A DNA stretch of 64,000 nt from the NCBI GenBank assembly GCA_052325425.1, contig JBKQUY010000067.1:30123-94122 (forward strand). Direction: 5' to 3'. The stretch comes from Bacteroidia bacterium (lineage in GTDB: Bacteria; Bacteroidota; Bacteroidia; JABEUT01). Within the stretch, counting starts at the first letter, position 1. Each line of letters starts with the position of its first letter. Below the pieces are notes generated by a model that saw only the letters and a program-made list of their open reading frames with translations, did not search any database and had not been told where the DNA came from. The position numbers and the translations under genes were made by a program. This document shows, one piece after another, positions 7,081 to 62,998 of the stretch.

Positions 7081-7440
7081 CTACTTGCTGCTTGCTTTTG
7101 CTTCACCAATAAGGGTAATACCTTCTTCCAGCGTAATGGCCGTATTAATTATGCTGTCGAGCTGCGAAATAAGTATTAACTTTTTAACCGGTTCTTTCAA
7201 CCCTGTAAGAACAAGCATTCCTCCCGAATTTTTGCACAGGCGGTTTCCTACAAGAATAGCGCTAAGCCCGGAGGAGTCGCAATACCGGGCATCGGACATA
7301 TCAATTATAATGTTCCTGGCGCCCTCCGTGTTAATGTTTACAAGTTCCGCTTTAAGCTCGGGAGCAATGAGGCTGTCAAGTTTCTCGGAGTTTATCTTGA
7401 CAACCATGCAACTTTTTTGTTTCTCAATCTGTAGTATCAT
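7081..7440 (-). CDS. STAS-domain protein (anti-sigma-factor antagonist / MlaB-like)
   Basis: 119 aa. STAS-like alternating hydrophobic pattern with conserved phosphorylatable Ser context (DSSGLSAIL). Lies directly downstream of mlaEF. Confidence 0.7.
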   Translation of the reverse strand: MILQIEKQKSCMVVKINSEKLDSLIAPELKAELVNINTEGARNIIIDMSDARYCDSSGLSAILVGNRLCKNSGGMLVLTGLKEPVKKLILISQLDSIINTAITLEEGITLIGEAKASSK

Positions 7441-7522
7441 TTTCGCTTATTTTATTCGTTTGAATTATATCTCAATTCCGGGGTTTATGATCAATCATTT
7501 ATGTTTTAACTGAATTACCTTA

Positions 7523-7530
7523 CAAATATA
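7523..7530 (-). promoter_or_regulatory. -7 box TATATTTG (minus strand) upstream of the STAS gene
   Basis: Second copy of the ttacaaatatataattttt element also seen at 4417-4440. Confidence 0.3.
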
Positions 7531-7574
7531 TAATTTTTTATGGAATAAACAAGTTTATTGCGTTAATAATTGCC

Positions 7575-8330
7575 TTATCCCTGTTTATCCTTCAATTCCT
7601 TCAGGAACTTGGAAACATAAATAAAATCCTGCAACTCTTTGTTATCGGTATTCAATATTGTTTTGTTATCGCCTTCCCACCAATTTTGCCGGTTACATAT
7701 AAATATCACTTTCTCGCCTATCTCCATTACCGAATTCATATCGTGTGTAATTACTACCGTGGTAATATTAAACTCAACTGTAATTTCCTTTATCAGCTTA
7801 TCAATCAATATGGAGGTTTTAGGGTCGAGCCCTGAGTTAGGCTCATCGCAAAACAGGTACTGCGGACTGGGAGCAATGGCGCGCGCAATAGCCACTCTTT
7901 TTTTCATTCCTCCGCTCAACTCTGATGGATAAAGGCTGTTTACATTTTTCAGGTTAACTCTTTCGAGGCAGAAATTTGCCCTTTCCAGCATTTGTTCTTC
8001 TGTCATATCAGTAAACATAGCCAGGGGAAAAGTAACGTTCTCTTCCACCGTTTTAGAATCAAACAATGCTGCGCCCTGGAAAAGCATGCCCATTTCTTTG
8101 CGTAAATGTTGCTTCTCCTTGATGTTCATATTCAAAAAATTCCTTCCGTCATAAAGCACCTCGCCCGAATCTACTGAGGTGAGCCCCACCATGCACTTTA
8201 ACAACACTGTTTTGCCCGAGCCGCTCTCCCCTATAATTAAATTTGTTTTGCCCTGCTCAAACTTGCACGAAAAATCCTTTGTAACCTGCTTATCGCCAAA
8301 GAACTTATTTATATTTTTCAGCTCAATCAT
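7575..8330 (-). CDS. mlaF: ABC transporter ATP-binding protein, MlaF-like
   Basis: Walker A GESGSGKT, ABC signature LSGGMKKRVAIARA. Start moved to the MIELKNINKFF ATG (8328-8330) to avoid overlap with mlaE. Confidence 0.85.
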   Translation of the reverse strand: MIELKNINKFFGDKQVTKDFSCKFEQGKTNLIIGESGSGKTVLLKCMVGLTSVDSGEVLYDGRNFLNMNIKEKQHLRKEMGMLFQGAALFDSKTVEENVTFPLAMFTDMTEEQMLERANFCLERVNLKNVNSLYPSELSGGMKKRVAIARAIAPSPQYLFCDEPNSGLDPKTSILIDKLIKEITVEFNITTVVITHDMNSVMEIGEKVIFICNRQNWWEGDNKTILNTDNKELQDFIYVSKFLKELKDKQG

Positions 8331-9295: not shown

Positions 9296-9499
9296 TCATG
9301 GTGTTTCAGTTTTCTCGCGAAGAACGCTGAGTAAACGACCCGCAGAGTTACGCAAAGTTGCTTCCCCAACAATTAGTGCAATCCCGGCCTCTTCTATCGG
9401 GGTTGATTCCCAAACAAGTAGCGCAATCCCGACCTCTTTTATCGGGGAGTTTTCCATTTCAATTATTCGTTCCATAATTTGTTTTTTATCGGTACTCAT
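9296..9499 (-). CDS. Small hypothetical ORF with internal PI(K/E)E(V/A)GIAL repeats, possibly a repeat fragment rather than a gene
   Basis: 67 aa. The DNA contains two 25 bp repeat units that also occur in the 10119..11099 gene. Confidence 0.3.
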   Translation of the reverse strand: MSTDKKQIMERIIEMENSPIKEVGIALLVWESTPIEEAGIALIVGEATLRNSAGRLLSVLREKTETP

Positions 9500-9506
9500 G
9501 ATTGCT

Positions 9507-9608
9507 TCGCAATTCCTAATTGCTAATTCCTAATTTTTAATTAATATCCCCCCCTCCATCGTAATTCGTAATTTCTAATTTTTAATTCGTAATTATCTAC
9601 CCCCCCCC
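9507..9608. repeat. Two about 45 bp AT-rich direct repeats (taattc/taattt motifs), each ending in a poly-C tract (C7 at 9548-9554, C9 at 9600-9608)
   Basis: Read directly from the sequence. Confidence 0.8.
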
Positions 9609-10118
9609 TATTTTGAACCTTGCCTGCATTATATTGATTTACAGCATATTATACATTTTATGAATTTTAACATTTGTCGTTATTTGTCCTCAATTGGCCT
9701 TAATTGACCATTAGAGTTTATATCGATTAAATGTTTATAAGTAGGCTAATTATTTCGGTATCAATATGTTAATAAAATATGTTCTTTATTTACATGGAGT
9801 TTGTAATGACAGTATAAACTCTATTTATTGTTTTTTAACCGCAAAGTCATTACGCTTCGGTTATGATGCTGATATTTATCGTCAGCATACGCAAAGCTAT
9901 ATGCAAAGAGCGCAAAGCAAGATCGCCATTTTTTTCTTTGCTTTCTTTGCGGGCTGTTTTCTTTGTGTCCTTTGCGGTTATGCTTTATATTTTTTTCACA
10001 CTGTTTCTTATTCGGTATAAGCTCTATTTAATAAATTTCCTTTTTCATTACTCTTATGATATTTTTTATTTTGGAATTCGTGAGTGTAAATTACGCCGTT
10101 CATAACTTATAACTCATA

Positions 10119-11099
10119 TCAGGCCGCTTCCTGTGAATCTTTGTTGAGCATATTGGGTGTTGAACTATTTATTGCGGAATCCGTTCCTCCCGACGATTCT
10201 ATCGGGACTGCGCCCGCAATTTCCGGCGGGACTGCGCTGGTTTCAGGGGAATCAGACCCATTGCTATGTAAGGGACTACTCTGTTTTGCAGTGGAAGTTG
10301 CTCCCGACGATTCTATCGGGACTGTGCCCGACGATTCTATCGGGACTGCGCCCGCAGTTTCTGAGGGAGCTGCACTGGTTTCAGGAGAAGCAGACCCCGA
10401 CGATTCTATCGGGACTGCGCTAATTTCAGGGGAAGCAGACCCATTGCTATGTAAGGGACTACTCATTCTTGCAGGGGAAGCAGCCCCCCAATCAACGGGA
10501 CTACTCTGTTTTGCAGGGGAAGCAGGTTTTAAAAAGTCTATGTATTTTTCTACCATCTGTTTTTGCGCTTCATCCCGTGTAATTATCTGTACGAGAGGAC
10601 TATCACTGTTTGCTCCTTTTGGTTCCTTGCAACGCATCTTCCATATTTTATCGAGGGCTTGCAGCCGGTGGGTGAAATTGGCTTTACAGCTTACTGGCTC
10701 AAGGCCATTTTTCGTGTTCACTATTTTTATTATTTCTATTTCGCCTTTGGCAATTTCCCAGAGCATTTTTTCTATCTCACTGTTGCCGGGCAGTTGCCTC
10801 TTTACCTCTTCTTCAATAAGCTGCTTGCGTACATTATCCAGTATAGATTTTCCCTTGCTTATCCGGTCAGCCACAACCTCTCTTGCAACGGCAAGGTAGC
10901 GCCTTATTGTCCGGTCCGATAGTGACCATCGTTCGCAGAATTCTTTGGTAATGGAGCTATACGATTCTCCTTTTTCTATCCATAGCGCAACTTCAAGTAT
11001 GCGCGGATTTGTGGTCAGTTCCTCCTCGCCATCAGGGAGGTTTTTAACCTCATCTGTTTGTCCGGCAGACAAGCAATCATTGGGATTTTTTGTTTCCAT
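10119..11099 (-). CDS. Hypothetical protein: N-terminal HTH-like domain plus Ser/Pro-rich tandem-repeat tail
   Basis: 326 aa. The C-terminal half repeats SSPLHSNGS-SPE-SAVP and VPIESSG units. The DNA encoding it carries the palindromic unit cccgacgattctatcggg four times. Confidence 0.7.
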   Translation of the reverse strand: METKNPNDCLSAGQTDEVKNLPDGEEELTTNPRILEVALWIEKGESYSSITKEFCERWSLSDRTIRRYLAVAREVVADRISKGKSILDNVRKQLIEEEVKRQLPGNSEIEKMLWEIAKGEIEIIKIVNTKNGLEPVSCKANFTHRLQALDKIWKMRCKEPKGANSDSPLVQIITRDEAQKQMVEKYIDFLKPASPAKQSSPVDWGAASPARMSSPLHSNGSASPEISAVPIESSGSASPETSAAPSETAGAVPIESSGTVPIESSGATSTAKQSSPLHSNGSDSPETSAVPPEIAGAVPIESSGGTDSAINSSTPNMLNKDSQEAA

Positions 11100-57326: not shown

Positions 57327-57467
57327 CTATTTAATAGGTTTCTTTATTGAATGGATTGGCTTATTTGTTGGGCAGTTTGGATTTGGGCATTTTGTTTGTC
57401 CAACTGGAATTACTGTGCCACATGACGGACAATGTATTTGTCCTGCTGTAATAGTTGTTTTTTTCAT
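57327..57467 (-). CDS. Possible small zinc-ribbon protein (CPSC...CPNPNC)
   Basis: Four Cys arranged as a CxxC-N14-CxxxxC knuckle pair. The longer ORF overlaps the upstream stop as ATGA. Confidence 0.3.
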   Translation of the reverse strand: MKKTTITAGQIHCPSCGTVIPVGQTKCPNPNCPTNKPIHSIKKPIK

Positions 57468-57556
57468 AGTTTTAAAGTTTAAGTTAATAATACTATTTAT
57501 TTTCAATTTTAATTCTACATTTAGTATTTCAAATAAAAAGGGAAACTTTCCTTTCG

Positions 57557-58936
57557 TCATTCAATGATTAGCTCCCCACTCGAAACATATTCTCCTTTCT
57601 CAGAAACTACCCTATAAAAATATATTCCTGTGGGTTGACCATTCAAATTTATATTAGTATTAATGAGGTTAAGCTTGCTTCTATAAATACTTTGCCCTAA
57701 GACATCAAATATCTCTATTTGGGGTTTATCTGAAATTCCTTGCAATGAAATAGTAAAATCTCCATTATTGGGATTGGGATAAAGTTTTATGGCTCCTGAT
57801 GTTGGAGTTAATTCATATATGGAAGCCGTTGAAGTAACATTGGTATCAACCTTAAAAATAACTCCATCACCGTTTGTTCCGCCTAATTCAGTCATTCCAT
57901 ACAACTTATTCCCTAAAAGCATCACATCACCGTATGGCTCTGCGCCGTTTGCGCTATCGAAATCAAGCAAGTTTTTAAACCCATTCCCATTAGTATCTAT
58001 TGAGAAAATATTACCATAACCATATATCCCCCCACTATGCGTCATACCATACAACTTATTTTCCACAAGCATTAAATCACCGTATGGCTCTGCGCCGTTT
58101 GCGCTATCGAAATCAAGCAGGTCTTTAAACCCATTGCCACCTGTATCTATTGAAAAAACATTACCGACTCCATTTGCGCCACCGCCAAGTGTCATCCCAA
58201 ACAATATATTCTTGGAAAGTGTTAATGCCCCCCACGGAACATCACCATTTGCGCCATTGAAATCAAAAAGGTCTTTATAGGCGCTGCCATTTGTATCGAG
58301 AGAGAAAACACATCCATTATTATGCGCCCCGCCCAACTCTGCCATTCCGTATAGCATTTTGCCTGAAATAGTTAATGAACCTAATGGGTAAGCACCGTTT
58401 GTAATATTAAAATCAAGTAAGTCCTTATATCCCTTACCATTCGTATCAATAGAAAACACACAGCCATCATTATTCGCCCCACCATTTTCCGTCATGCCAT
58501 ACAGTTTATTCCCTGAAAACATTAAAGAACCCCAAGGATAAGAACCATTTTTTTCATTAAAATCAAACAGGTCAGTATATCCACTACCATTTATACTTAT
58601 GGAGAATATGCAGCCACTATCGTATGCTCCGCCAAGCCATGTTACGCCATATAGTATGTTGCCGGATAGTGTTAATGAACCTTCGGGCTGTGCGCCAGTC
58701 TTATTGCTGAAATCGTGAAGGTCTTTATACCCGCTTCCATTCGTATCAATAGAGAAAATGCAACCACTGCCATTTGCTCCACCAAGATAAGTCATCCCGA
58801 ACAGCAAATTTCCCGAAGGCGTTAATGAACCGTGAGGCCCACCTCCATTTGTGTCATTGAAGTTCAGAAGGACTGTAAACTGTGCATTTGTAATAATGCT
58901 ATAAATAAGAAAAAATAAAAGTAAAATCCTTTTCAT
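57557..58936 (-). CDS. T9SS cargo: Gloeo_Verruco-repeat protein with C-terminal sorting domain
   Basis: About 9 tandem units LYGMTxxGGxxxxGxxFSIDTNG. C-terminal KLYPNPNNGDFTISL...GIYFYRVVSEKG tail. Confidence 0.85.
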   Translation of the reverse strand: MKRILLLFFLIYSIITNAQFTVLLNFNDTNGGGPHGSLTPSGNLLFGMTYLGGANGSGCIFSIDTNGSGYKDLHDFSNKTGAQPEGSLTLSGNILYGVTWLGGAYDSGCIFSISINGSGYTDLFDFNEKNGSYPWGSLMFSGNKLYGMTENGGANNDGCVFSIDTNGKGYKDLLDFNITNGAYPLGSLTISGKMLYGMAELGGAHNNGCVFSLDTNGSAYKDLFDFNGANGDVPWGALTLSKNILFGMTLGGGANGVGNVFSIDTGGNGFKDLLDFDSANGAEPYGDLMLVENKLYGMTHSGGIYGYGNIFSIDTNGNGFKNLLDFDSANGAEPYGDVMLLGNKLYGMTELGGTNGDGVIFKVDTNVTSTASIYELTPTSGAIKLYPNPNNGDFTISLQGISDKPQIEIFDVLGQSIYRSKLNLINTNINLNGQPTGIYFYRVVSEKGEYVSSGELIIE

Positions 58937-58942
58937 TAAATA

Positions 58943-59503
58943 TTAATATTTCGTGCTGTCAGCAGGTGAAACTGTTACTCCATTTTCACTAAAAAACGTA
59001 TAAAGGTCATTTAATTTATACCAAGTCATATCCCATTTCAAAGTTCCGGCTGTTTTATATATGACAGGTTCATCTATTGGCATCAGAGTTGGTAAATTAT
59101 CCGTCTGTAATTGATGCGTCATACCTGAATCAGCATCTTTGCAAAAAATAATATAGGTAGTTCCAGTATATAAAAACGGCCCACCATCATTAACTTGCTG
59201 GATTTCATTTCCTATTTGACCTCCCTGGTCAGTAATTACCTTTATTGTGCCAAGCTGAATATTGGGGCTTCCCTTATAAATCTTAGAAATTTGGATTACG
59301 TTACATGTTAATATACCCCATCCTTTTTTGCCATAAAAACACTCTTGCTTAATTACTTTTCCCTCAACAATGTAGGGGGAGTTTTGAATATCGCTCTTAT
59401 GTATGGCAAGTAATTTCGATTCACTTGCCTTTGCACGTTGGGCAAAGCATTCTACATTGCACAAAAGCAATACTGCTATTATAATCTCTATTTTATTTTT
59501 CAT
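58943..59503 (-). CDS. Secreted hypothetical protein (186 aa)
   Basis: Signal peptide ...CFAQ. Tightly packed between two T9SS cargo genes. Confidence 0.65.
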   Translation of the reverse strand: MKNKIEIIIAVLLLCNVECFAQRAKASESKLLAIHKSDIQNSPYIVEGKVIKQECFYGKKGWGILTCNVIQISKIYKGSPNIQLGTIKVITDQGGQIGNEIQQVNDGGPFLYTGTTYIIFCKDADSGMTHQLQTDNLPTLMPIDEPVIYKTAGTLKWDMTWYKLNDLYTFFSENGVTVSPADSTKY

Positions 59504-59514
59504 GGTAAGTCTAT

Positions 59515-62500
59515 TTATATCTTAATGAATTTAATTGCCTTGCTTTGTCCATTGATATTAGCAACAAACAAATAAACTCCCTGCGCTAAATTATCAATAT
59601 TTATCTGTTGGTTGTATGTTCCGGCAGGTTTATGTTCATCAGTTAGCGTTAAAACTTCTCTGCCAGTTATATCAAAAATCCTAAATTGAATATCTGAAGA
59701 CCTGCTTAATTGATAATTGATTGTAATGTCTCCAGCATTTATTGGGTTAGGAAATTCGGTGAGATTTTCATTGTTTTCTACAATATTTTGTACGCCTTCA
59801 GTAGCGTCTTTACAACCTATGGTGCTTGGCATAAGTGTACCTGAAACACATCCATTAGGAATAGCTGCGCTTGTATTGACAACATCCTTCCCTCCATAAA
59901 GAGTTTGAGGTCCAATTGGTGTGCCTGAAGTTATTCCTAACCTTTGTGTTGTAGACGCTTCCCAATACATTAAGGAGTTAGTATCAATAATATGATTTAA
60001 CAGAAGGGCGTGGCCTAATTCATGGAGAATTACATTATAAAAATATTCAACATTCCCTCCTAATATGTTGTTTGTCGTGTCGAAACTCCATATTTCACCC
60101 AAAGAGGACAAGCTTGACCTAACCTGAATATCCGCATCGTAATAAAAAGCAATGGAATCTTTAGTGTCTTGGCAAGTTGACGTATAATTGTTATGGGTTC
60201 CCATTAAATCATTTGGGTTAGTAAAGTTATTGCTGTAAAAAATTTCACAGACGCTATCGAGCGCAATCTGCGGTACAAAGACTGTATCAATGGTATCTAA
60301 CTTCCAATTTATGCCTGTAAAGCAATTCCATTCTCGTACAGCTTTTTCAACACAAGCCAGAGCCGCTTTATTTCTTAGGATATTGGTATCGCATCTGAAT
60401 AACATGCTATATGCGGGGTTGACCATTGAAATATTCTCCCTCATTTTCTCTCCCCCTACGGTGTACCAATTCTTAATATTATAATTTATTCTAAGTTCAG
60501 AATTTGAATTATCAATATTGCCACACGCATTTTGCACATTAATTATACCCGAACCCGGGGTCATTGTATTTGTTAACATTACTCCCGGCATTTTGACCTC
60601 TATTGAGTTTTCTGTCCAAGACTTTATATCAGAAGTATCTAAAGTAATTGTATCCTCTCCGCCTGTATTTGCATCAGGAACAAGTATTTGACCCTTTGTA
60701 CGTCCAAATCCATACCCTGTAATTGTTAGCATTGAAGAATTTGCCGGTACACTTAATGAATTTGTACCTGCATTTACAGGTGTATAAAATGGGAAAACTG
60801 AAACGCCGCATTCATTTGGAGTTACCTGTGAACCGGAATAGTTAGTGCTTTTATATTGGAGATTTTCGGCACTATCTGTTGTGCCATTGTGATAGGTATA
60901 ACTCCAAACTTTGATAGTATCGTAACAAGTCTGATAGCAGGTATCGTAACAGGTATTATAACAAGTGTTATAACAGGTATTATAACAGGTTTCTATACAG
61001 TTTCCATCATCATCATAAGCGCAACAATATGGGTCGCATTGATATGGGTCGCATTGGTATGGGTCACAGTCATAAGGATTACAAAGATAAGGGTTGCAGT
61101 CATGCGGGTTAAATAGCGAATCCCTTGAAGTAGAATCCTTATACGTATAGGATATTGGTGTTTGAACGGTGAAAAAACCCGAACCGCTGGTATTAATCGT
61201 ATCGGTAAAACTTACCGTAGAAGTCTGGCAGCCCTGAATTTTCAACTGAACTTGAAATAATATTTTAGGAATAGAATCAAGAAGTGTTCCTTGCCCAGAA
61301 GTGTCCGAAATATCGCCAAATTGAATTTGTAAGACGCTATCGCCAGCGTATGGGTTGCTTAGTGTCAGATTATTGTAATCATTCTTTCCCGCAACATATT
61401 GGAAATCGCTACCCCTCGTAACAGTTATACCATTTGATACATTATCGGGAGAAAATTCAGCACTGGGGTAATACAGCTCAATTACGCAGCTATTGAATAT
61501 GGTTGGAGAATCGGCAGCAGCCATAATATCAAATTGAAAGTACCCGCCTTGACAATTTGTTATCATATTCCCTCCTAAAGAGAGTATTAAATGAGGGTCG
61601 GCATACGTGCATACATTAACTATAACAATAGCTTTAAGCGTGTCGCACGGACTGATGACATCAGACACGGTATAAGTGGTCGTAACGGAAGGTGTAGCAT
61701 TAACAGTAGTTCCTGTGGTTGCGCTCAGTCCCTTAGCAGGAGACCAGATATAATTTGAGCCTCCACTTGCTGTTAATTTTGCTGTGTCTCCCCAACAAAT
61801 TATGGAATGTGTTGAAGTTACTGTTATTGCGGGAATGGGAGAAGCCGTACATGCAACGCAATTCGTATTCTGCCAATACAGCCCTGCTGCTATCAATGAA
61901 TAACAGTCGCCTGAATCGCTCGTTATGTTATTAGTATAAGTATTAAAAGTTGCCGTTGTTTGGCTGGCCGTAAATGATGTATTTATTTGATTGAAATTCC
62001 AAAAATTATTACTGAATGTCTTACTTGTACCATTATATACCTCTACATTGGTATCTCCGTTCCTGTTTGCTTGAATATCACCCAACAAGGCAAACGCCGA
62101 GCCTGTTGAAGCGGCGGAACAAACATTAAACCCTGATGCGTTATAAGTTAAATTCGAGTTGTTTTTATTACAAACCATAACCCCATCATTGACTACTATT
62201 GAGCCGCTATATTTTGCCGTTAAATCCTTATAGATAATAAGTAGAGTAACTCCATCCACTTCGCTGGCATCATTTCCTGTACCTGACAAGTTAATGGAAT
62301 ATATGCCATTACCTGTAATATTATTTGTAACATCTGCACGATAGGCCGCAACTCCGGTTTCGCCCCAACATTTAGGCGGGCCTGTGCCAATATTATTCAC
62401 CGAATATGTAGAAACTCCGGCGCAAGGGTTCGTAACTTTTATAGTCGCAGTACCTGCGTTACCATTATAAGAACAATCCCAATACAGATAAGCTTTAATA

Positions 62501-62865
62501 ATCGAATCGTGTCCTGTTGGAAGCCCCGATATTGTAACACTCGTAGGCAAGCCAGTACCATTCATATTAAAACCATAGGGTTGGCTTCTCGTTTCTACTA
62601 TTTGAGAGGCGGCAACGTAATTAAGCCCACAGGCATTTTCATTAATATACGATTGCCCAAGCGTTTTTGAGCCGTTTTTATAATTGTTATTAGGATTTTC
62701 ACCTGCTGTCCCCATGTGGGAACCCGCTTTACAATTAACACATTGCGCTGAGAGTTTATTATTTCCCGCCAAAATAAATAGCAGAGTGGGTATTATAGTA
62801 TAAGTGAGTAATTTTTTCTTCACATACGAGACAAAAAATACGTAAAATAATTTCTTGTTATCCAT
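59515..62865 (-). CDS. T9SS cargo: large secreted zincin-like metalloprotease with Cys/Tyr-rich tandem repeats
   Basis: 1116 aa. HELGHALLLNH (HExxH) motif. Internal repeats NPYDCDPYQCDPYQCDPY and CYNTCYNTCYNTCYDTCYQTCYDT. C-terminal FPNPINAGDITINY...GVYLFVANINGQ sorting domain. Confidence 0.85.
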   Translation of the reverse strand: MDNKKLFYVFFVSYVKKKLLTYTIIPTLLFILAGNNKLSAQCVNCKAGSHMGTAGENPNNNYKNGSKTLGQSYINENACGLNYVAASQIVETRSQPYGFNMNGTGLPTSVTISGLPTGHDSIIKAYLYWDCSYNGNAGTATIKVTNPCAGVSTYSVNNIGTGPPKCWGETGVAAYRADVTNNITGNGIYSINLSGTGNDASEVDGVTLLIIYKDLTAKYSGSIVVNDGVMVCNKNNSNLTYNASGFNVCSAASTGSAFALLGDIQANRNGDTNVEVYNGTSKTFSNNFWNFNQINTSFTASQTTATFNTYTNNITSDSGDCYSLIAAGLYWQNTNCVACTASPIPAITVTSTHSIICWGDTAKLTASGGSNYIWSPAKGLSATTGTTVNATPSVTTTYTVSDVISPCDTLKAIVIVNVCTYADPHLILSLGGNMITNCQGGYFQFDIMAAADSPTIFNSCVIELYYPSAEFSPDNVSNGITVTRGSDFQYVAGKNDYNNLTLSNPYAGDSVLQIQFGDISDTSGQGTLLDSIPKILFQVQLKIQGCQTSTVSFTDTINTSGSGFFTVQTPISYTYKDSTSRDSLFNPHDCNPYLCNPYDCDPYQCDPYQCDPYCCAYDDDGNCIETCYNTCYNTCYNTCYDTCYQTCYDTIKVWSYTYHNGTTDSAENLQYKSTNYSGSQVTPNECGVSVFPFYTPVNAGTNSLSVPANSSMLTITGYGFGRTKGQILVPDANTGGEDTITLDTSDIKSWTENSIEVKMPGVMLTNTMTPGSGIINVQNACGNIDNSNSELRINYNIKNWYTVGGEKMRENISMVNPAYSMLFRCDTNILRNKAALACVEKAVREWNCFTGINWKLDTIDTVFVPQIALDSVCEIFYSNNFTNPNDLMGTHNNYTSTCQDTKDSIAFYYDADIQVRSSLSSLGEIWSFDTTNNILGGNVEYFYNVILHELGHALLLNHIIDTNSLMYWEASTTQRLGITSGTPIGPQTLYGGKDVVNTSAAIPNGCVSGTLMPSTIGCKDATEGVQNIVENNENLTEFPNPINAGDITINYQLSRSSDIQFRIFDITGREVLTLTDEHKPAGTYNQQINIDNLAQGVYLFVANINGQSKAIKFIKI

Positions 62866-62886
62866 CTATAATGAAACAGTAATAAA

Positions 62887-62998
62887 CGGTTAGTGTTTTC
62901 CGTAACATGGTTAGTTTTTCGGTAACATAACGGTAAAATACCGTAATGTAGCAGTAATAAATTCGGTAAGGTTTCGGTAAGTAGTAGGTAAAAATACC
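62887..62998. promoter_or_regulatory. Array of CGGTAA / TTACCG-containing direct and palindromic repeats, 20-130 bp upstream of the protease gene
   Basis: GGTTAGT(G)TTTTCCGTAACAT x2, ACGGTA-AAA-TACCGT palindrome, TTCGGTAAG x2, GGTA-N5-TACC. Confidence 0.4.

Follow-up and report, generated by a model that had tools for sequence, protein, structure and literature searches.

Judging from sequence comparisons, the Cys-rich segment of a secreted metzincin-like protein in the 64-kb window (the whole stretch of 64,000 nucleotides analysed here) belongs to a recurrent and unannotated extracellular family, which many bacteria and some archaea carry in secreted proteins. The module is built from two tandem-repeat arms of different period, the unit numbers of which match across the family, and its Cys count is mostly even. 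We propose that these arms form an antiparallel two-arm hairpin stapled by disulfides, which would project from the host protein as a rod of variable length, and we consider the chance that this reading is correct to be a little better than even.

Two tandem repeats encode a bipartite Cys module

The module (aa 586-650; 60916..61110, minus strand) comprises an NPHD lead-in, arm1, a connector and arm2, and its pattern is five units of C-N/D-P-Y-x, followed by CAYDDDGNCIET and six units of C-Y-x-T. It contains 14 of the 40 Cys of the host protein, which are concentrated inside 58 residues. Arm1 (aa 590-615; 61021..61098, minus strand) consists of the five 5-residue units CNPYL, CNPYD, CDPYQ, CDPYQ and CDPYC with a closing C, encoded by a 15-bp repeat. 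Arm2 (aa 623-650; 60916..60999, minus strand) starts with CIET and continues with the six CYxT units CYNT, CYNT, CYNT, CYDT, CYQT and CYDT, these 4-residue units being encoded by a 12-bp repeat. The connector AYDDDGN between them (aa 616-622; 61000..61020, minus strand) is a predicted hairpin turn, and the signature of its subfamily is CC-x-YD-x-x-GN-C. By Tandem Repeats Finder, the 15-bp array was located at 61027-61065 (2.6 copies, 95% matches, score 71) and the 12-bp array at 60923-60990 (5.7 copies, 78% matches, score 80). The initial annotation had described a Cys/Tyr-rich segment encoded by tandem 15-bp and 12-bp repeats, which is exact for the minus strand at aa 586-650; its range of 60880-61110 ended correctly, but the start included 12 codons beyond the repeat. 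The matched pairing of the two repeat types and the recurrence of the module as a family had been missed.

The units differ from each other at synonymous sites (TGC/TGT, CCT/CCA, TAT/TAC and ACC/ACT), while C, P and Y in the one repeat and C, Y and T in the other are invariant, which points to selection on the residue pattern of the module. A plus-strand ORF over the same region (60856..61116) was rejected as a by-product of the repeat.

A recurrent family with matched arms

Using an exhaustive HMMER search together with a DNA scan for arm2 only, we found about 60 proteins with the two-part design, which recurs in unrelated proteins of many phyla and of differing GC content. The exhaustive profile search covered 1.84 billion representatives and yielded 68 matches, about 35 of which were bipartite. 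The arm2-only scan of genomes gave 57 loci, including 25 ORFs with both arms (24 by the strict arm1 motif), and the remaining matches to the arm2 pattern were non-coding simple repeats in short ORFs lacking arm1. As family criteria, we used at least two tandem units of C-[ND]-P-[YH]-x for arm1 and, in the same protein, at least two tandem units of C-[YWF]-x-T for arm2, with arm unit numbers that are equal or differ by one and an even number of Cys; the window protein has five such arm1 units (aa 590-614), tandem arm2 units at aa 623-650, unit numbers of 5/6 and 14 Cys. In the consensus of 303 arm1 units, N was found in 80%, P in 79% and Y/H in 86%, and position 4 was His in 23% of the units, with Phe and Arg also occurring. 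In the consensus of 306 arm2 units, Y was found in 83% and T in 88%, and Trp and Phe also occurred.

The hosts include T9SS enzymes, a GDSL lipase, collagen-like proteins, pilin-like proteins with a prepilin N_methyl segment, an EGF-rich protein and archaeal proteins. Every host with identifiable other domains is of a secreted or surface type, and several hosts have no Pfam match. Some members belong to strict anaerobes or archaea (Methanosarcinales, Clostridium and rumen Bacilli). In the copy of Pfam searched, no family covers the module, and the NCBIfam copy likewise leaves it unannotated. Neither a PDB sequence search with the module nor a Foldseek search with its predicted model returned a match, and nothing relevant was found in the literature on CXXX repeats with radical SAM, TIGR04114/04115/04117, cystine or disulfide ladder stalks, or the repeat strings. 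A word-indexed search returned two proteins with the segment and again two with a 20-sequence alignment, the index being ill-suited to this composition. P0122 was discarded as a junk ORF, and giant matches of 3-4 kaa (P0123 and others), which contain only a single CDPYEC per repeat of about 230 aa, were set aside as motif-level resemblance.

First, the two arms agree in unit number. Of the 25 modules of the independent genome set, in which the arms have 2-12 units, 19 had equal numbers in arm1 and arm2, including pairs of 12/12, 11/11 and 8/8, and 23 were within one unit; of the 36 modules of the profile-search set, 21 had equal arms and 29 were within one unit. The unit numbers of the two arms were strongly correlated (Spearman 0.89), a value reached by none of 100000 permutations. 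Second, 36 of 39 isolated modules, defined by the absence of further Cys within 15 aa, had an even Cys count (p=1.8e-8) and three an odd one; counts of 10, 14, 18 and 26 were common. The sets used for arm matching and parity include some orthologs, which means that independent events are overcounted. Third, inserts (50-65 aa) were found between the arms only. For example, the arms and the rest of P0182 and P0206 are about 99% identical, but the insert that separates the arms can hardly be aligned. In addition, the innermost Cys are often separated across the connector by only 4-6 residues (CGFQTC and CGRYSTC), and a permuted order of the arms also occurs. Length differences within 90% clusters were ruled out as changes in unit number, and they reflect start-codon calls and variation of the tip insert.

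The host protein and its orthologs

The host gene (59515..62865, minus strand) is an ORF of 1116 aa, in which a signal peptide, an N-terminal domain common to many gliding/T9SS proteins, an Ig-like domain and a cohesin-like beta domain are followed by the Cys module, a beta-sandwich, an MMP-like metzincin and a T9SS C-terminal sorting domain. The beta-rich domain directly N-terminal of the module (aa ~417-545; 61231..61617, minus strand) may weakly resemble cohesin according to a low-confidence model. The metzincin-like catalytic region (aa ~800-1020; 59806..60468, minus strand) carries the zincin motif HELGHALLLNH (aa 948-958; 59992-60024, minus strand) and, C-terminal to it, Met966 within SLMYW as the Met-turn. 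Compared with the metzincin consensus HExxHxxGxxH, the motif has Leu where Gly is expected; a Met-turn is present, and HExxHxxxxxH is found in all host orthologs. Pfam Peptidase_M10 matched with 22.8 bits (E=9.4e-5) over the C-terminal third of the profile only, which is below the gathering score of 24 bits, and the best matches of the host in a PDB sequence search were MMPs (E=0.03-0.7). The type A sorting domain (aa 1038-1113; 59527..59754, minus strand) was matched at aa 1038-1115 by both Por_Secre_tail PF18962 (41.6 bits, E=1.5e-10, cut-off 27) and TIGR04183 (40.5 bits, E=2e-10, cut-off 23), and by these profile matches the host protein is a T9SS cargo. Judged by the T9SS genes, the source genome is Bacteroidota-like, with a low GC content. 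The host had been called a T9SS zincin protease at the outset, and this description holds for the sorting domain; the metzincin-like part has a zincin motif that departs from the consensus at one position, and its Peptidase_M10 match remains short of the cut-off.

In a full-length homolog search, the relatives of the host aligned at the N-terminal and Ig domains only, and none covered the module. The module is kept at the same site in six orthologous metzincins, with arm1/arm2 unit numbers of 7/7 in P0127, 4/~4 in P0161, 3/4 in P0145, 2/4 in P0186, 5/5 in L015 and 4/4 in L019, and P0127 is 47.5% identical to the window protein over aa 417-1116. Indels among the orthologs are whole units and occur in both arms, with 2-7 units overall. 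The initial annotation had named as refuting its reading that homologs lack the segment and that modelling gives a disordered linker without conserved Cys spacing; both the segment and its Cys spacing proved to be retained in homologs. The Cys of P0127 are divided 10+8 and hence do not form a simple 1:1 ladder. The gene downstream of the host gene (58943..59503, minus strand) encodes a conserved protein of 186 aa, which has a signal peptide and matches no Pfam family; this gene pairs with the protease gene and is unrelated to the Cys module.

Proposed hairpin rod and alternative readings

From the observations above we infer the disulfide chemistry, the intramolecular pairing, the rod shape and the function of the module as follows. 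Arm1, (C-N/D-P-Y/H-x)n, and arm2, (C-Y-D/N/Q-T)n, would act as a pair with a short turn between them, and antiparallel arms with one disulfide per rung would give a rigid hairpin rod. In the window protein, the predicted Cys pairs are 615-623, 614-627, 610-631, 605-635, 600-639, 595-643 and 590-647. The unit number would set the length of the rod, which would project from where the cohesin-like domain meets the beta-sandwich that follows the module, without pushing these domains apart, and the extra domains of relatives would be inserted at the hairpin tip. The function may be that of a rigid projection or display stalk, perhaps with a strip lined by Tyr and Thr which contacts a surface. The earlier suggestion of a disulfide-knotted segment thus gains support from the Cys spacing conserved in about 60 proteins and from the Cys parity, as apparent from the sequences, and that of a length-variable one is borne out by the unit numbers among orthologs. 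The suggested stalk or spacer can be kept as a projecting hairpin rod but not as an in-line spacer, since the arms appear to pair and the hairpin ends would lie together.

Several points count against the disulfide model, namely the low AF2 confidence, the three isolated modules with odd Cys, the Cys distribution in P0127, the members in strict anaerobes and archaea, where extracellular disulfides are less expected, and the closeness of the arm2 sequence to radical-SAM target repeats. Structure prediction of the segment, as recommended by the initial annotation, placed a turn at the connector, but with low confidence overall. When the module alone was modelled by AF2, the mean pLDDT was 60.9, with a peak of 76-80 at the connector, where a turn or beta-hairpin was predicted. 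Arm2 was modelled as a helix in two independent runs, which is possibly an artefact of the 4-residue periodicity because C, Y, T, N and D have a low helix propensity. In the AF2 run of aa 417-800, the pLDDT of the module was 21-43, and this model cannot support any module geometry.

The proposed hairpin can be compared with several known systems. Sactipeptides (subtilosin A, thuricin CD and thurincin H) are small ribosomal peptides in which evenly spaced Cys of one arm of a hairpin are cross-linked to the other arm in 3-4 rungs, by radical SAM-made thioethers to the alpha-carbons of non-Cys residues. The rung-by-rung hairpin proposed here is alike, but the module has Cys in both arms, up to 12 rungs and large secreted hosts. 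Alpha-hairpinins and twin-CX3C/CHCH proteins have two disulfides only, with CX3C (or CX9C) on both arms; they share with the proposed hairpin CX3C on a (predicted) helix, an antiparallel second arm and nested disulfides, whereas the module has one CX4C arm with a Pro in each unit and 2-12 rungs. In the beetle antifreeze protein TmAFP, TCT repeats of 12 residues form a beta-helix of a single period, each coil of which has one disulfide. Both this protein and the module would be regular Cys ladders which stiffen a repeat rod, and the T-C-aromatic/Thr pattern may produce a surface row of Thr/Tyr, but the module has two arms of different period and shows no sequence or PDB match. High-sulfur keratin-associated proteins, with C-C-x-P-x pentapeptides in a eukaryotic intracellular matrix, have a similar five-residue Cys/Pro periodicity for disulfide cross-linking but no matched four-residue arm, and no sequence relationship was detected. 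It is possible, if doubtful, that the module represents a new structural class, a 'two-period' cystine zipper in which the rise per unit is the same for a Pro-kinked arm of 5-residue units and an arm of 4-residue units, with one disulfide locking each rung. Such a zipper would provide a tunable rod (2-12 rungs) for a tip domain, which is hypervariable in some pilin-like proteins, or for a Tyr/Thr strip, and its arm2 would share common ancestry with the radical-SAM CXXX-repeat peptides. If so, two different chemistries would cross-link one tetrapeptide array in different lineages. Once solved, the structure of the module would bring to the catalogue of disulfide-rich repeats a new fold or design principle, namely two arms of different period that have to expand and contract together. 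It would also supply a name and a model for a module that occurs across many phyla, in collagen-like and pilin-like proteins as well as secreted enzymes, and that is unannotated in the copies of Pfam and NCBIfam searched. Directly testable cases in which two separate tandem repeats evolve in a coordinated way are rare, and the matched copy numbers provide one. A rigid, length-programmable and genetically encoded rod may be of use in protein engineering.

Matched arms would fit pairing between two chains as well. In such an inter-chain zipper, arm1 of one molecule would join arm2 of another, by disulfides or non-covalently, giving dimers, polymers or covalent assemblies; unit matching and even Cys fit it equally well, and many hosts, such as collagen-like trimers and pilin-like subunits, are naturally oligomeric. 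We consider this reading unlikely, as the short connectors between the innermost Cys have the look of a tight hairpin, AF2 placed a beta-hairpin there, and the domains and the hypervariable insert between the arms are most simply seen as tip loops of an intramolecular hairpin.

Metal binding had also been suggested by the initial annotation. A metal-thiolate ladder, in which Cys pairs from the two arms hold a row of Zn, Cu(I) or Fe in a metallothionein- or rubredoxin-like manner, would agree with the very dense Cys, the Tyr/His exchange at arm1 position 4, the occurrence in strict anaerobes and archaea, and the even Cys numbers, which suit paired ligands. However, Phe and Arg at the same position and Trp and Phe in arm2 suggest aromatic packing, T9SS cargo of aerobic-type Bacteroidota is found among the hosts, and CxxC or CxC, the usual spacing at metal sites, is missing. 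Particularly, Zn(Cys)4 sites predict multiples of four Cys, which the common counts of 10, 14, 18 and 26 do not follow, and such a ladder is quite unlikely in our judgement.

Arm2, and perhaps arm1, may instead be the substrate of a thioether-forming radical-SAM/SPASM maturase, like the CXXX-repeat targets of TIGR04114 ('tSAM_targ_Cxxx'), TIGR04117 and PF27846, which share with the module a Cys at every fourth residue and the C-Y-D-x unit. TIGR04114 scored 15.8 bits on arm2 of the window protein (aa 634-650), below the cut-off of 20 bits, and 24.5 bits on the ortholog P0127, above it; the outcome is borderline and depends on the repeat number. Arm2-only P0125, a (CYDx)n protein with a near-identical tetrapeptide, lies directly downstream of a Radical_SAM+SPASM gene and served as the positive control for such an adjoining gene. 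The near-identity raises the question of whether one scaffold can serve both disulfide and thioether ladders. However, the CXXX-repeat targets consist of arm2-type units alone, arm1 being absent from P0125, P0165 and P0181, whereas the window protein combines a matched 5-residue arm with a signal peptide and a T9SS domain, and no ORF of at least 150 aa with CxxxCxxC was found as a maturase candidate in the 64-kb window. Among the neighbours of 26 module loci, there was no shared family and no conserved maturase; the lone radical SAM gene (at L040, one of the 26 loci) lies 3 kb off and is of a 220-aa Fer4_12 type without SPASM. In addition, the hosts are large multidomain proteins with signal peptides, exported by Sec/T9SS, and no leader-peptide precursors, and neither arm matching nor Cys parity is predicted by this reading, which we regard as very unlikely.

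A disordered and unselected low-complexity linker, produced by replication slippage of 12-/15-bp units, would explain the tandem DNA repeats, the variable copy number in orthologs and the low AF2 confidence. This reading is already contradicted by the synonymous divergence with fixed key residues, by recurrence of the design in unrelated proteins of many phyla and different GC, and by the arm matching and Cys parity, and the other arm2-pattern matches are non-coding, in short ORFs and devoid of arm1; it is highly improbable. The initially suggested propeptide-like inhibitor, or a Cys switch as employed by MMPs, would mask the metzincin zinc until activation and would suit the position upstream of the MMP-like catalytic domain, but it is hardly credible, as the same module occurs in many proteins without a protease (GDSL lipase, collagen-like, pilin-like, EGF-rich and archaeal proteins), about 150 residues including the beta-sandwich separate it from the catalytic domain, and no thiol is left over when the Cys count is even.

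Anatomy of the repeat and its host

The Cys/Tyr-rich repeat described in the initial annotation is real. It occupies aa 586-650 (60916..61110) of a 1116-aa minus-strand ORF (59515..62865) and reads NPHD-CNPYL-CNPYD-CDPYQ-CDPYQ-CDPYC-CAYDDDGN-CIET-CYNT-CYNT-CYNT-CYDT-CYQT-CYDT, so that five-residue Cys units (arm1) and four-residue Cys units (arm2) flank a connector. Tandem Repeats Finder detected two arrays, of period 15 bp (61027-61065) and 12 bp (60923-60990), and a plus-strand ORF over the same DNA (60856..61116) was dismissed as a by-product of the repeat. The five arm1 and six arm2 units differ synonymously (TGC/TGT, AAC/AAT, CCT/CCA, TAT/TAC, ACC/ACT), C, P and Y in arm1 and C, Y and T in arm2 are invariant, and the variable positions carry amino-acid changes (L/D/Q/C and N/D/Q). 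Synonymous divergence with unchanged key residues rules out a fresh slippage product and is the signature of purifying selection on the residue pattern.

The host carries a T9SS sorting domain (PF18962, E=1.5e-10; TIGR04183, E=2e-10) and the zinc motif HELGHALLLNH followed by the Met-turn SLMYW. Its Peptidase_M10 match is sub-threshold (22.8 bits against a cut-off of 24), and MMPs were the only matches in a PDB sequence search (E about 0.03). The label 'T9SS zincin protease' is therefore fair, with borderline family membership. The beta domain before the module is weakly cohesin-like in a Foldseek search (E about 1e-2) that used a model of low confidence. Of 40 Cys in the host, 14 lie inside 58 residues.

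Distribution of the module and matching of its arms

The full-length host retrieved relatives of its N-terminal third only, and a search with the segment alone led to P0121, a protein with the same two-part layout (CDPYN CNYRT CNPYN CNYRN CNPHP C..., then CYDT CYDT CYQT CYDI CYRSRC) in a frameshifted collagen-like gene of a different, higher-GC organism. A HMMER profile built from these two modules gave 68 matches at E<=1e-3 among 1.84 billion representatives, about 35 of them with both arms. Four matches are true orthologs of the host from aa ~370-417 onward, namely P0127 (47.5% identity), P0161 (41.6%), P0145 (31.6%) and the partial P0186, and the genome scan described below added two more, L015 and L019. 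HExxHxxxxxH is present in all complete orthologs, and their modules differ by whole-unit indels in both arms: arm1/arm2 unit counts are 7/7, 4/~4, 3/4, 2/4, 5/5 and 4/4 in P0127, P0161, P0145, P0186, L015 and L019, and 5/6 in the window.

Independently, 185,579 species-representative genomes were scanned with DNA encoding arm2 only, (CYxT)3C. The scan returned 57 loci. In 25 of them the ORF carries arm1 as well (in 24 when arm1 was called by the strict motif of that step). The other 32 all lack arm1 and were rejected as module genes; the majority are short ORFs over simple non-coding repeats, and one, L046, is a contig-end fragment. Module loci were found in Bacteroidota, Myxococcota, Bacilli, Clostridia, Mycoplasmatota, Planctomycetia, Hydrogenedentota and Proteobacteria, as well as in three archaeal bins (Woesearchaeota, Methanosarcinales and one unclassified). 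The arm1 consensus is C-N(80%)-P(79%)-Y/H(63/23%)-x over 303 units, and that of arm2 is C-Y(83%)-D/Q/N-T(88%) over 306 units. The connector usually has 4-8 residues, often C-G-x-x-x-T-C, and takes the form CC-x-YD-x-x-GN-C in the metzincin subfamily. In some members the arm order is reversed, or the arms are separated by an insert of 50-65 aa that contains Cys.

Unit numbers of the two arms are closely matched. In the profile-search set they are equal in 21/36 modules and within one in 29/36; in the genome set, for which arm2 was the only criterion, 19/25 are equal and 23/25 within one, over a range of 2-12 that includes 12/12, 11/11 and 8/8 (Spearman 0.89). None of 100000 permutations reached the observed equalities (mean expected 4.4). 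Because the arrays differ in period (15 vs 12 bp) and would slip independently, equal arm numbers must be a product of selection. Of 39 modules free of further Cys for 15 residues to each side, 36 have an even Cys number (binomial p=1.8e-8), and the window has 14. Most odd-count modules in the full set have one more Cys 10-14 residues away, so most are probably boundary errors. Inserts lie between the arms, not inside them. In the pilin-like pair P0182/P0206 (Bacilli; cf. L012 3544-5730), which differs by only eight substitutions in the first 637 residues and has identical arm1 and arm2, the ~50-residue Cys-rich insert is almost unalignable, suggestive of a hypervariable cassette presented at a hairpin tip.

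Several architectures were also noted. First, L001 contains a paralogous pair of secreted, collagen-like (GXY)n genes (7135-8135 and 9450-10519), each frameshift-broken in the assembly; one has a Stig1-like Cys-rich domain at its end, where the other has the bipartite module and a beta-rich C-terminal domain, and the collagen-like architecture recurs in module proteins P0129, P0131, P0136 and P0164. Second, Chitinophagales GDSL lipase-like T9SS proteins (L021, L040, L041, L044, P0139, P0160) have a nested module with 26 Cys, conserved in 6/6, in which a short hairpin (arm1-CNCQT-arm2) precedes an insert of ~45 aa, after which come a further short arm1 stretch (PYDCNPYxCNCQT) and the long arm2. 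Third, giant 3-4 kaa proteins (P0123, P0124, P0126, P0128 and others) have 4-10 repeats of ~230 aa, each with one CDPYEC[LE][EK]RI motif; they matched only the arm1 part of the profile and probably represent an unrelated repeat domain with a common C-x-P-Y-x-C motif.

A candidate disulfide-stapled hairpin

From the unit-number match, Cys parity and insert position, we infer that the arms pair rung by rung, with every Cys partnered and the inter-arm sequence at an exposed tip. The module would be an antiparallel hairpin with one disulfide staple per rung, and in the window the nested pairs 615-623, 614-627, 610-631, 605-635, 600-639, 595-643 and 590-647 would use all 14 Cys. The rod would grow longer in proportion to its number of units, and Tyr, Thr, Asn and Asp would line its surface in regular rows. 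The initial proposal of a disulfide-knotted, length-variable element thus holds broadly, with putative disulfides, given even Cys in 36/39 modules, matched arms and varying ortholog counts. Its 'spacer' is better described as a predicted projecting hairpin rod: with the two ends of a hairpin side by side, the module would stick out where the preceding domain meets the following one instead of separating them. A propeptide inhibitor is unlikely.

For the fold that we infer together with this disulfide chemistry, two forms are equally possible. AF2 with a 20-sequence alignment (mean pLDDT 60.9, peak 76-80 around the connector) predicted a beta-hairpin at the connector, a single long helix for arm2 and, for arm1, helical turns of three residues that recur every five; in context (aa 417-800) arm2 was again helical, at pLDDT 21-43. 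With a helical arm2 each rung would add about 6 A, a rise that arm1 could follow if compact and kinked at its Pro residues. However, helices form poorly from C, Y, T, N and D, and an equally possible structure is an extended ribbon in which every arm1 unit makes a bulge.

Alternatively, the Cys could be thioether-modified by a radical SAM enzyme. The arm2 array is nearly the same as that of the radical-SAM target family: TIGR04114 ('tSAM_targ_Cxxx', an 18-residue repeat model) scores 15.8 bits on the window arm2, under its 20-bit cut-off, and 24.5 bits on P0127; three profile-search matches (P0125, P0165, P0181; newer Pfam label PF27846) have arm2-type units only; and at L060 1357-3900, P0125, (CYDx)n, directly follows a Radical_SAM+SPASM gene. 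However, no ORF of at least 150 aa in the 64-kb window contains CxxxCxxC, the 26 module loci have no neighbour family in common except the module protein itself, and the only radical SAM gene near a module (L040, 1/26 loci) encodes a 220-aa Fer4_12-type protein without SPASM. As module hosts are also Sec-exported multidomain proteins, the likelihood of such modification of the bipartite module is low, but not zero. L060 itself is a clean example of a CXXX-repeat maturase system; the 493-aa P0125 has up to 24 consecutive CYDx units without arm1, and its unit is almost identical to that of the window arm2.

Known systems and neighbouring genes

No model in the Pfam-A copy searched covers the module in the window protein or 19 other members, the PDB gave neither a sequence nor a fold match, and we found no literature on it. 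Source names refer to other domains only, or to 'hypothetical protein'. Its nearest analogues are CXXX radical-SAM targets (for arm2 only), hairpins of the sactipeptide and helical CX3C kinds, the beetle antifreeze protein with its Cys ladder, and keratin-associated C-C-x-P-x repeats, all of which lack two different-period arms of matched copy number. The module belongs with disulfide-rich repeat modules, and its design rule is unusual and testable.

Directly downstream of the metzincin gene, 58943..59503 (minus) encodes a 186-aa signal-peptide protein without a Pfam match. Its counterpart is the downstream neighbour of P0127 (L064 8464-9093, 36% identity, E=5e-31), and 2-3 paralogous copies adjoin the L015 and L019 orthologs. 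The two genes form a conserved protease-partner pair, in which the partner is possibly an inhibitor, chaperone or substrate adaptor. In the putative promoter/leader upstream of the metzincin gene start (62865), at 62880..62990, a TTACCGAAA-like motif is directly repeated several times, with a 20-bp tandem repeat (62888-62928) among the copies, and this could be a regulator-binding array. Just downstream of the pair, 57327..58936 (minus) holds genes for a 459-aa T9SS cargo built of ~46-aa Gly/Asn-rich repeats (…GGANGSGCIFSIDTNGSGYKDL…) and a 77-aa zinc-ribbon protein, the former overlapping the start of the latter by 4 bp.
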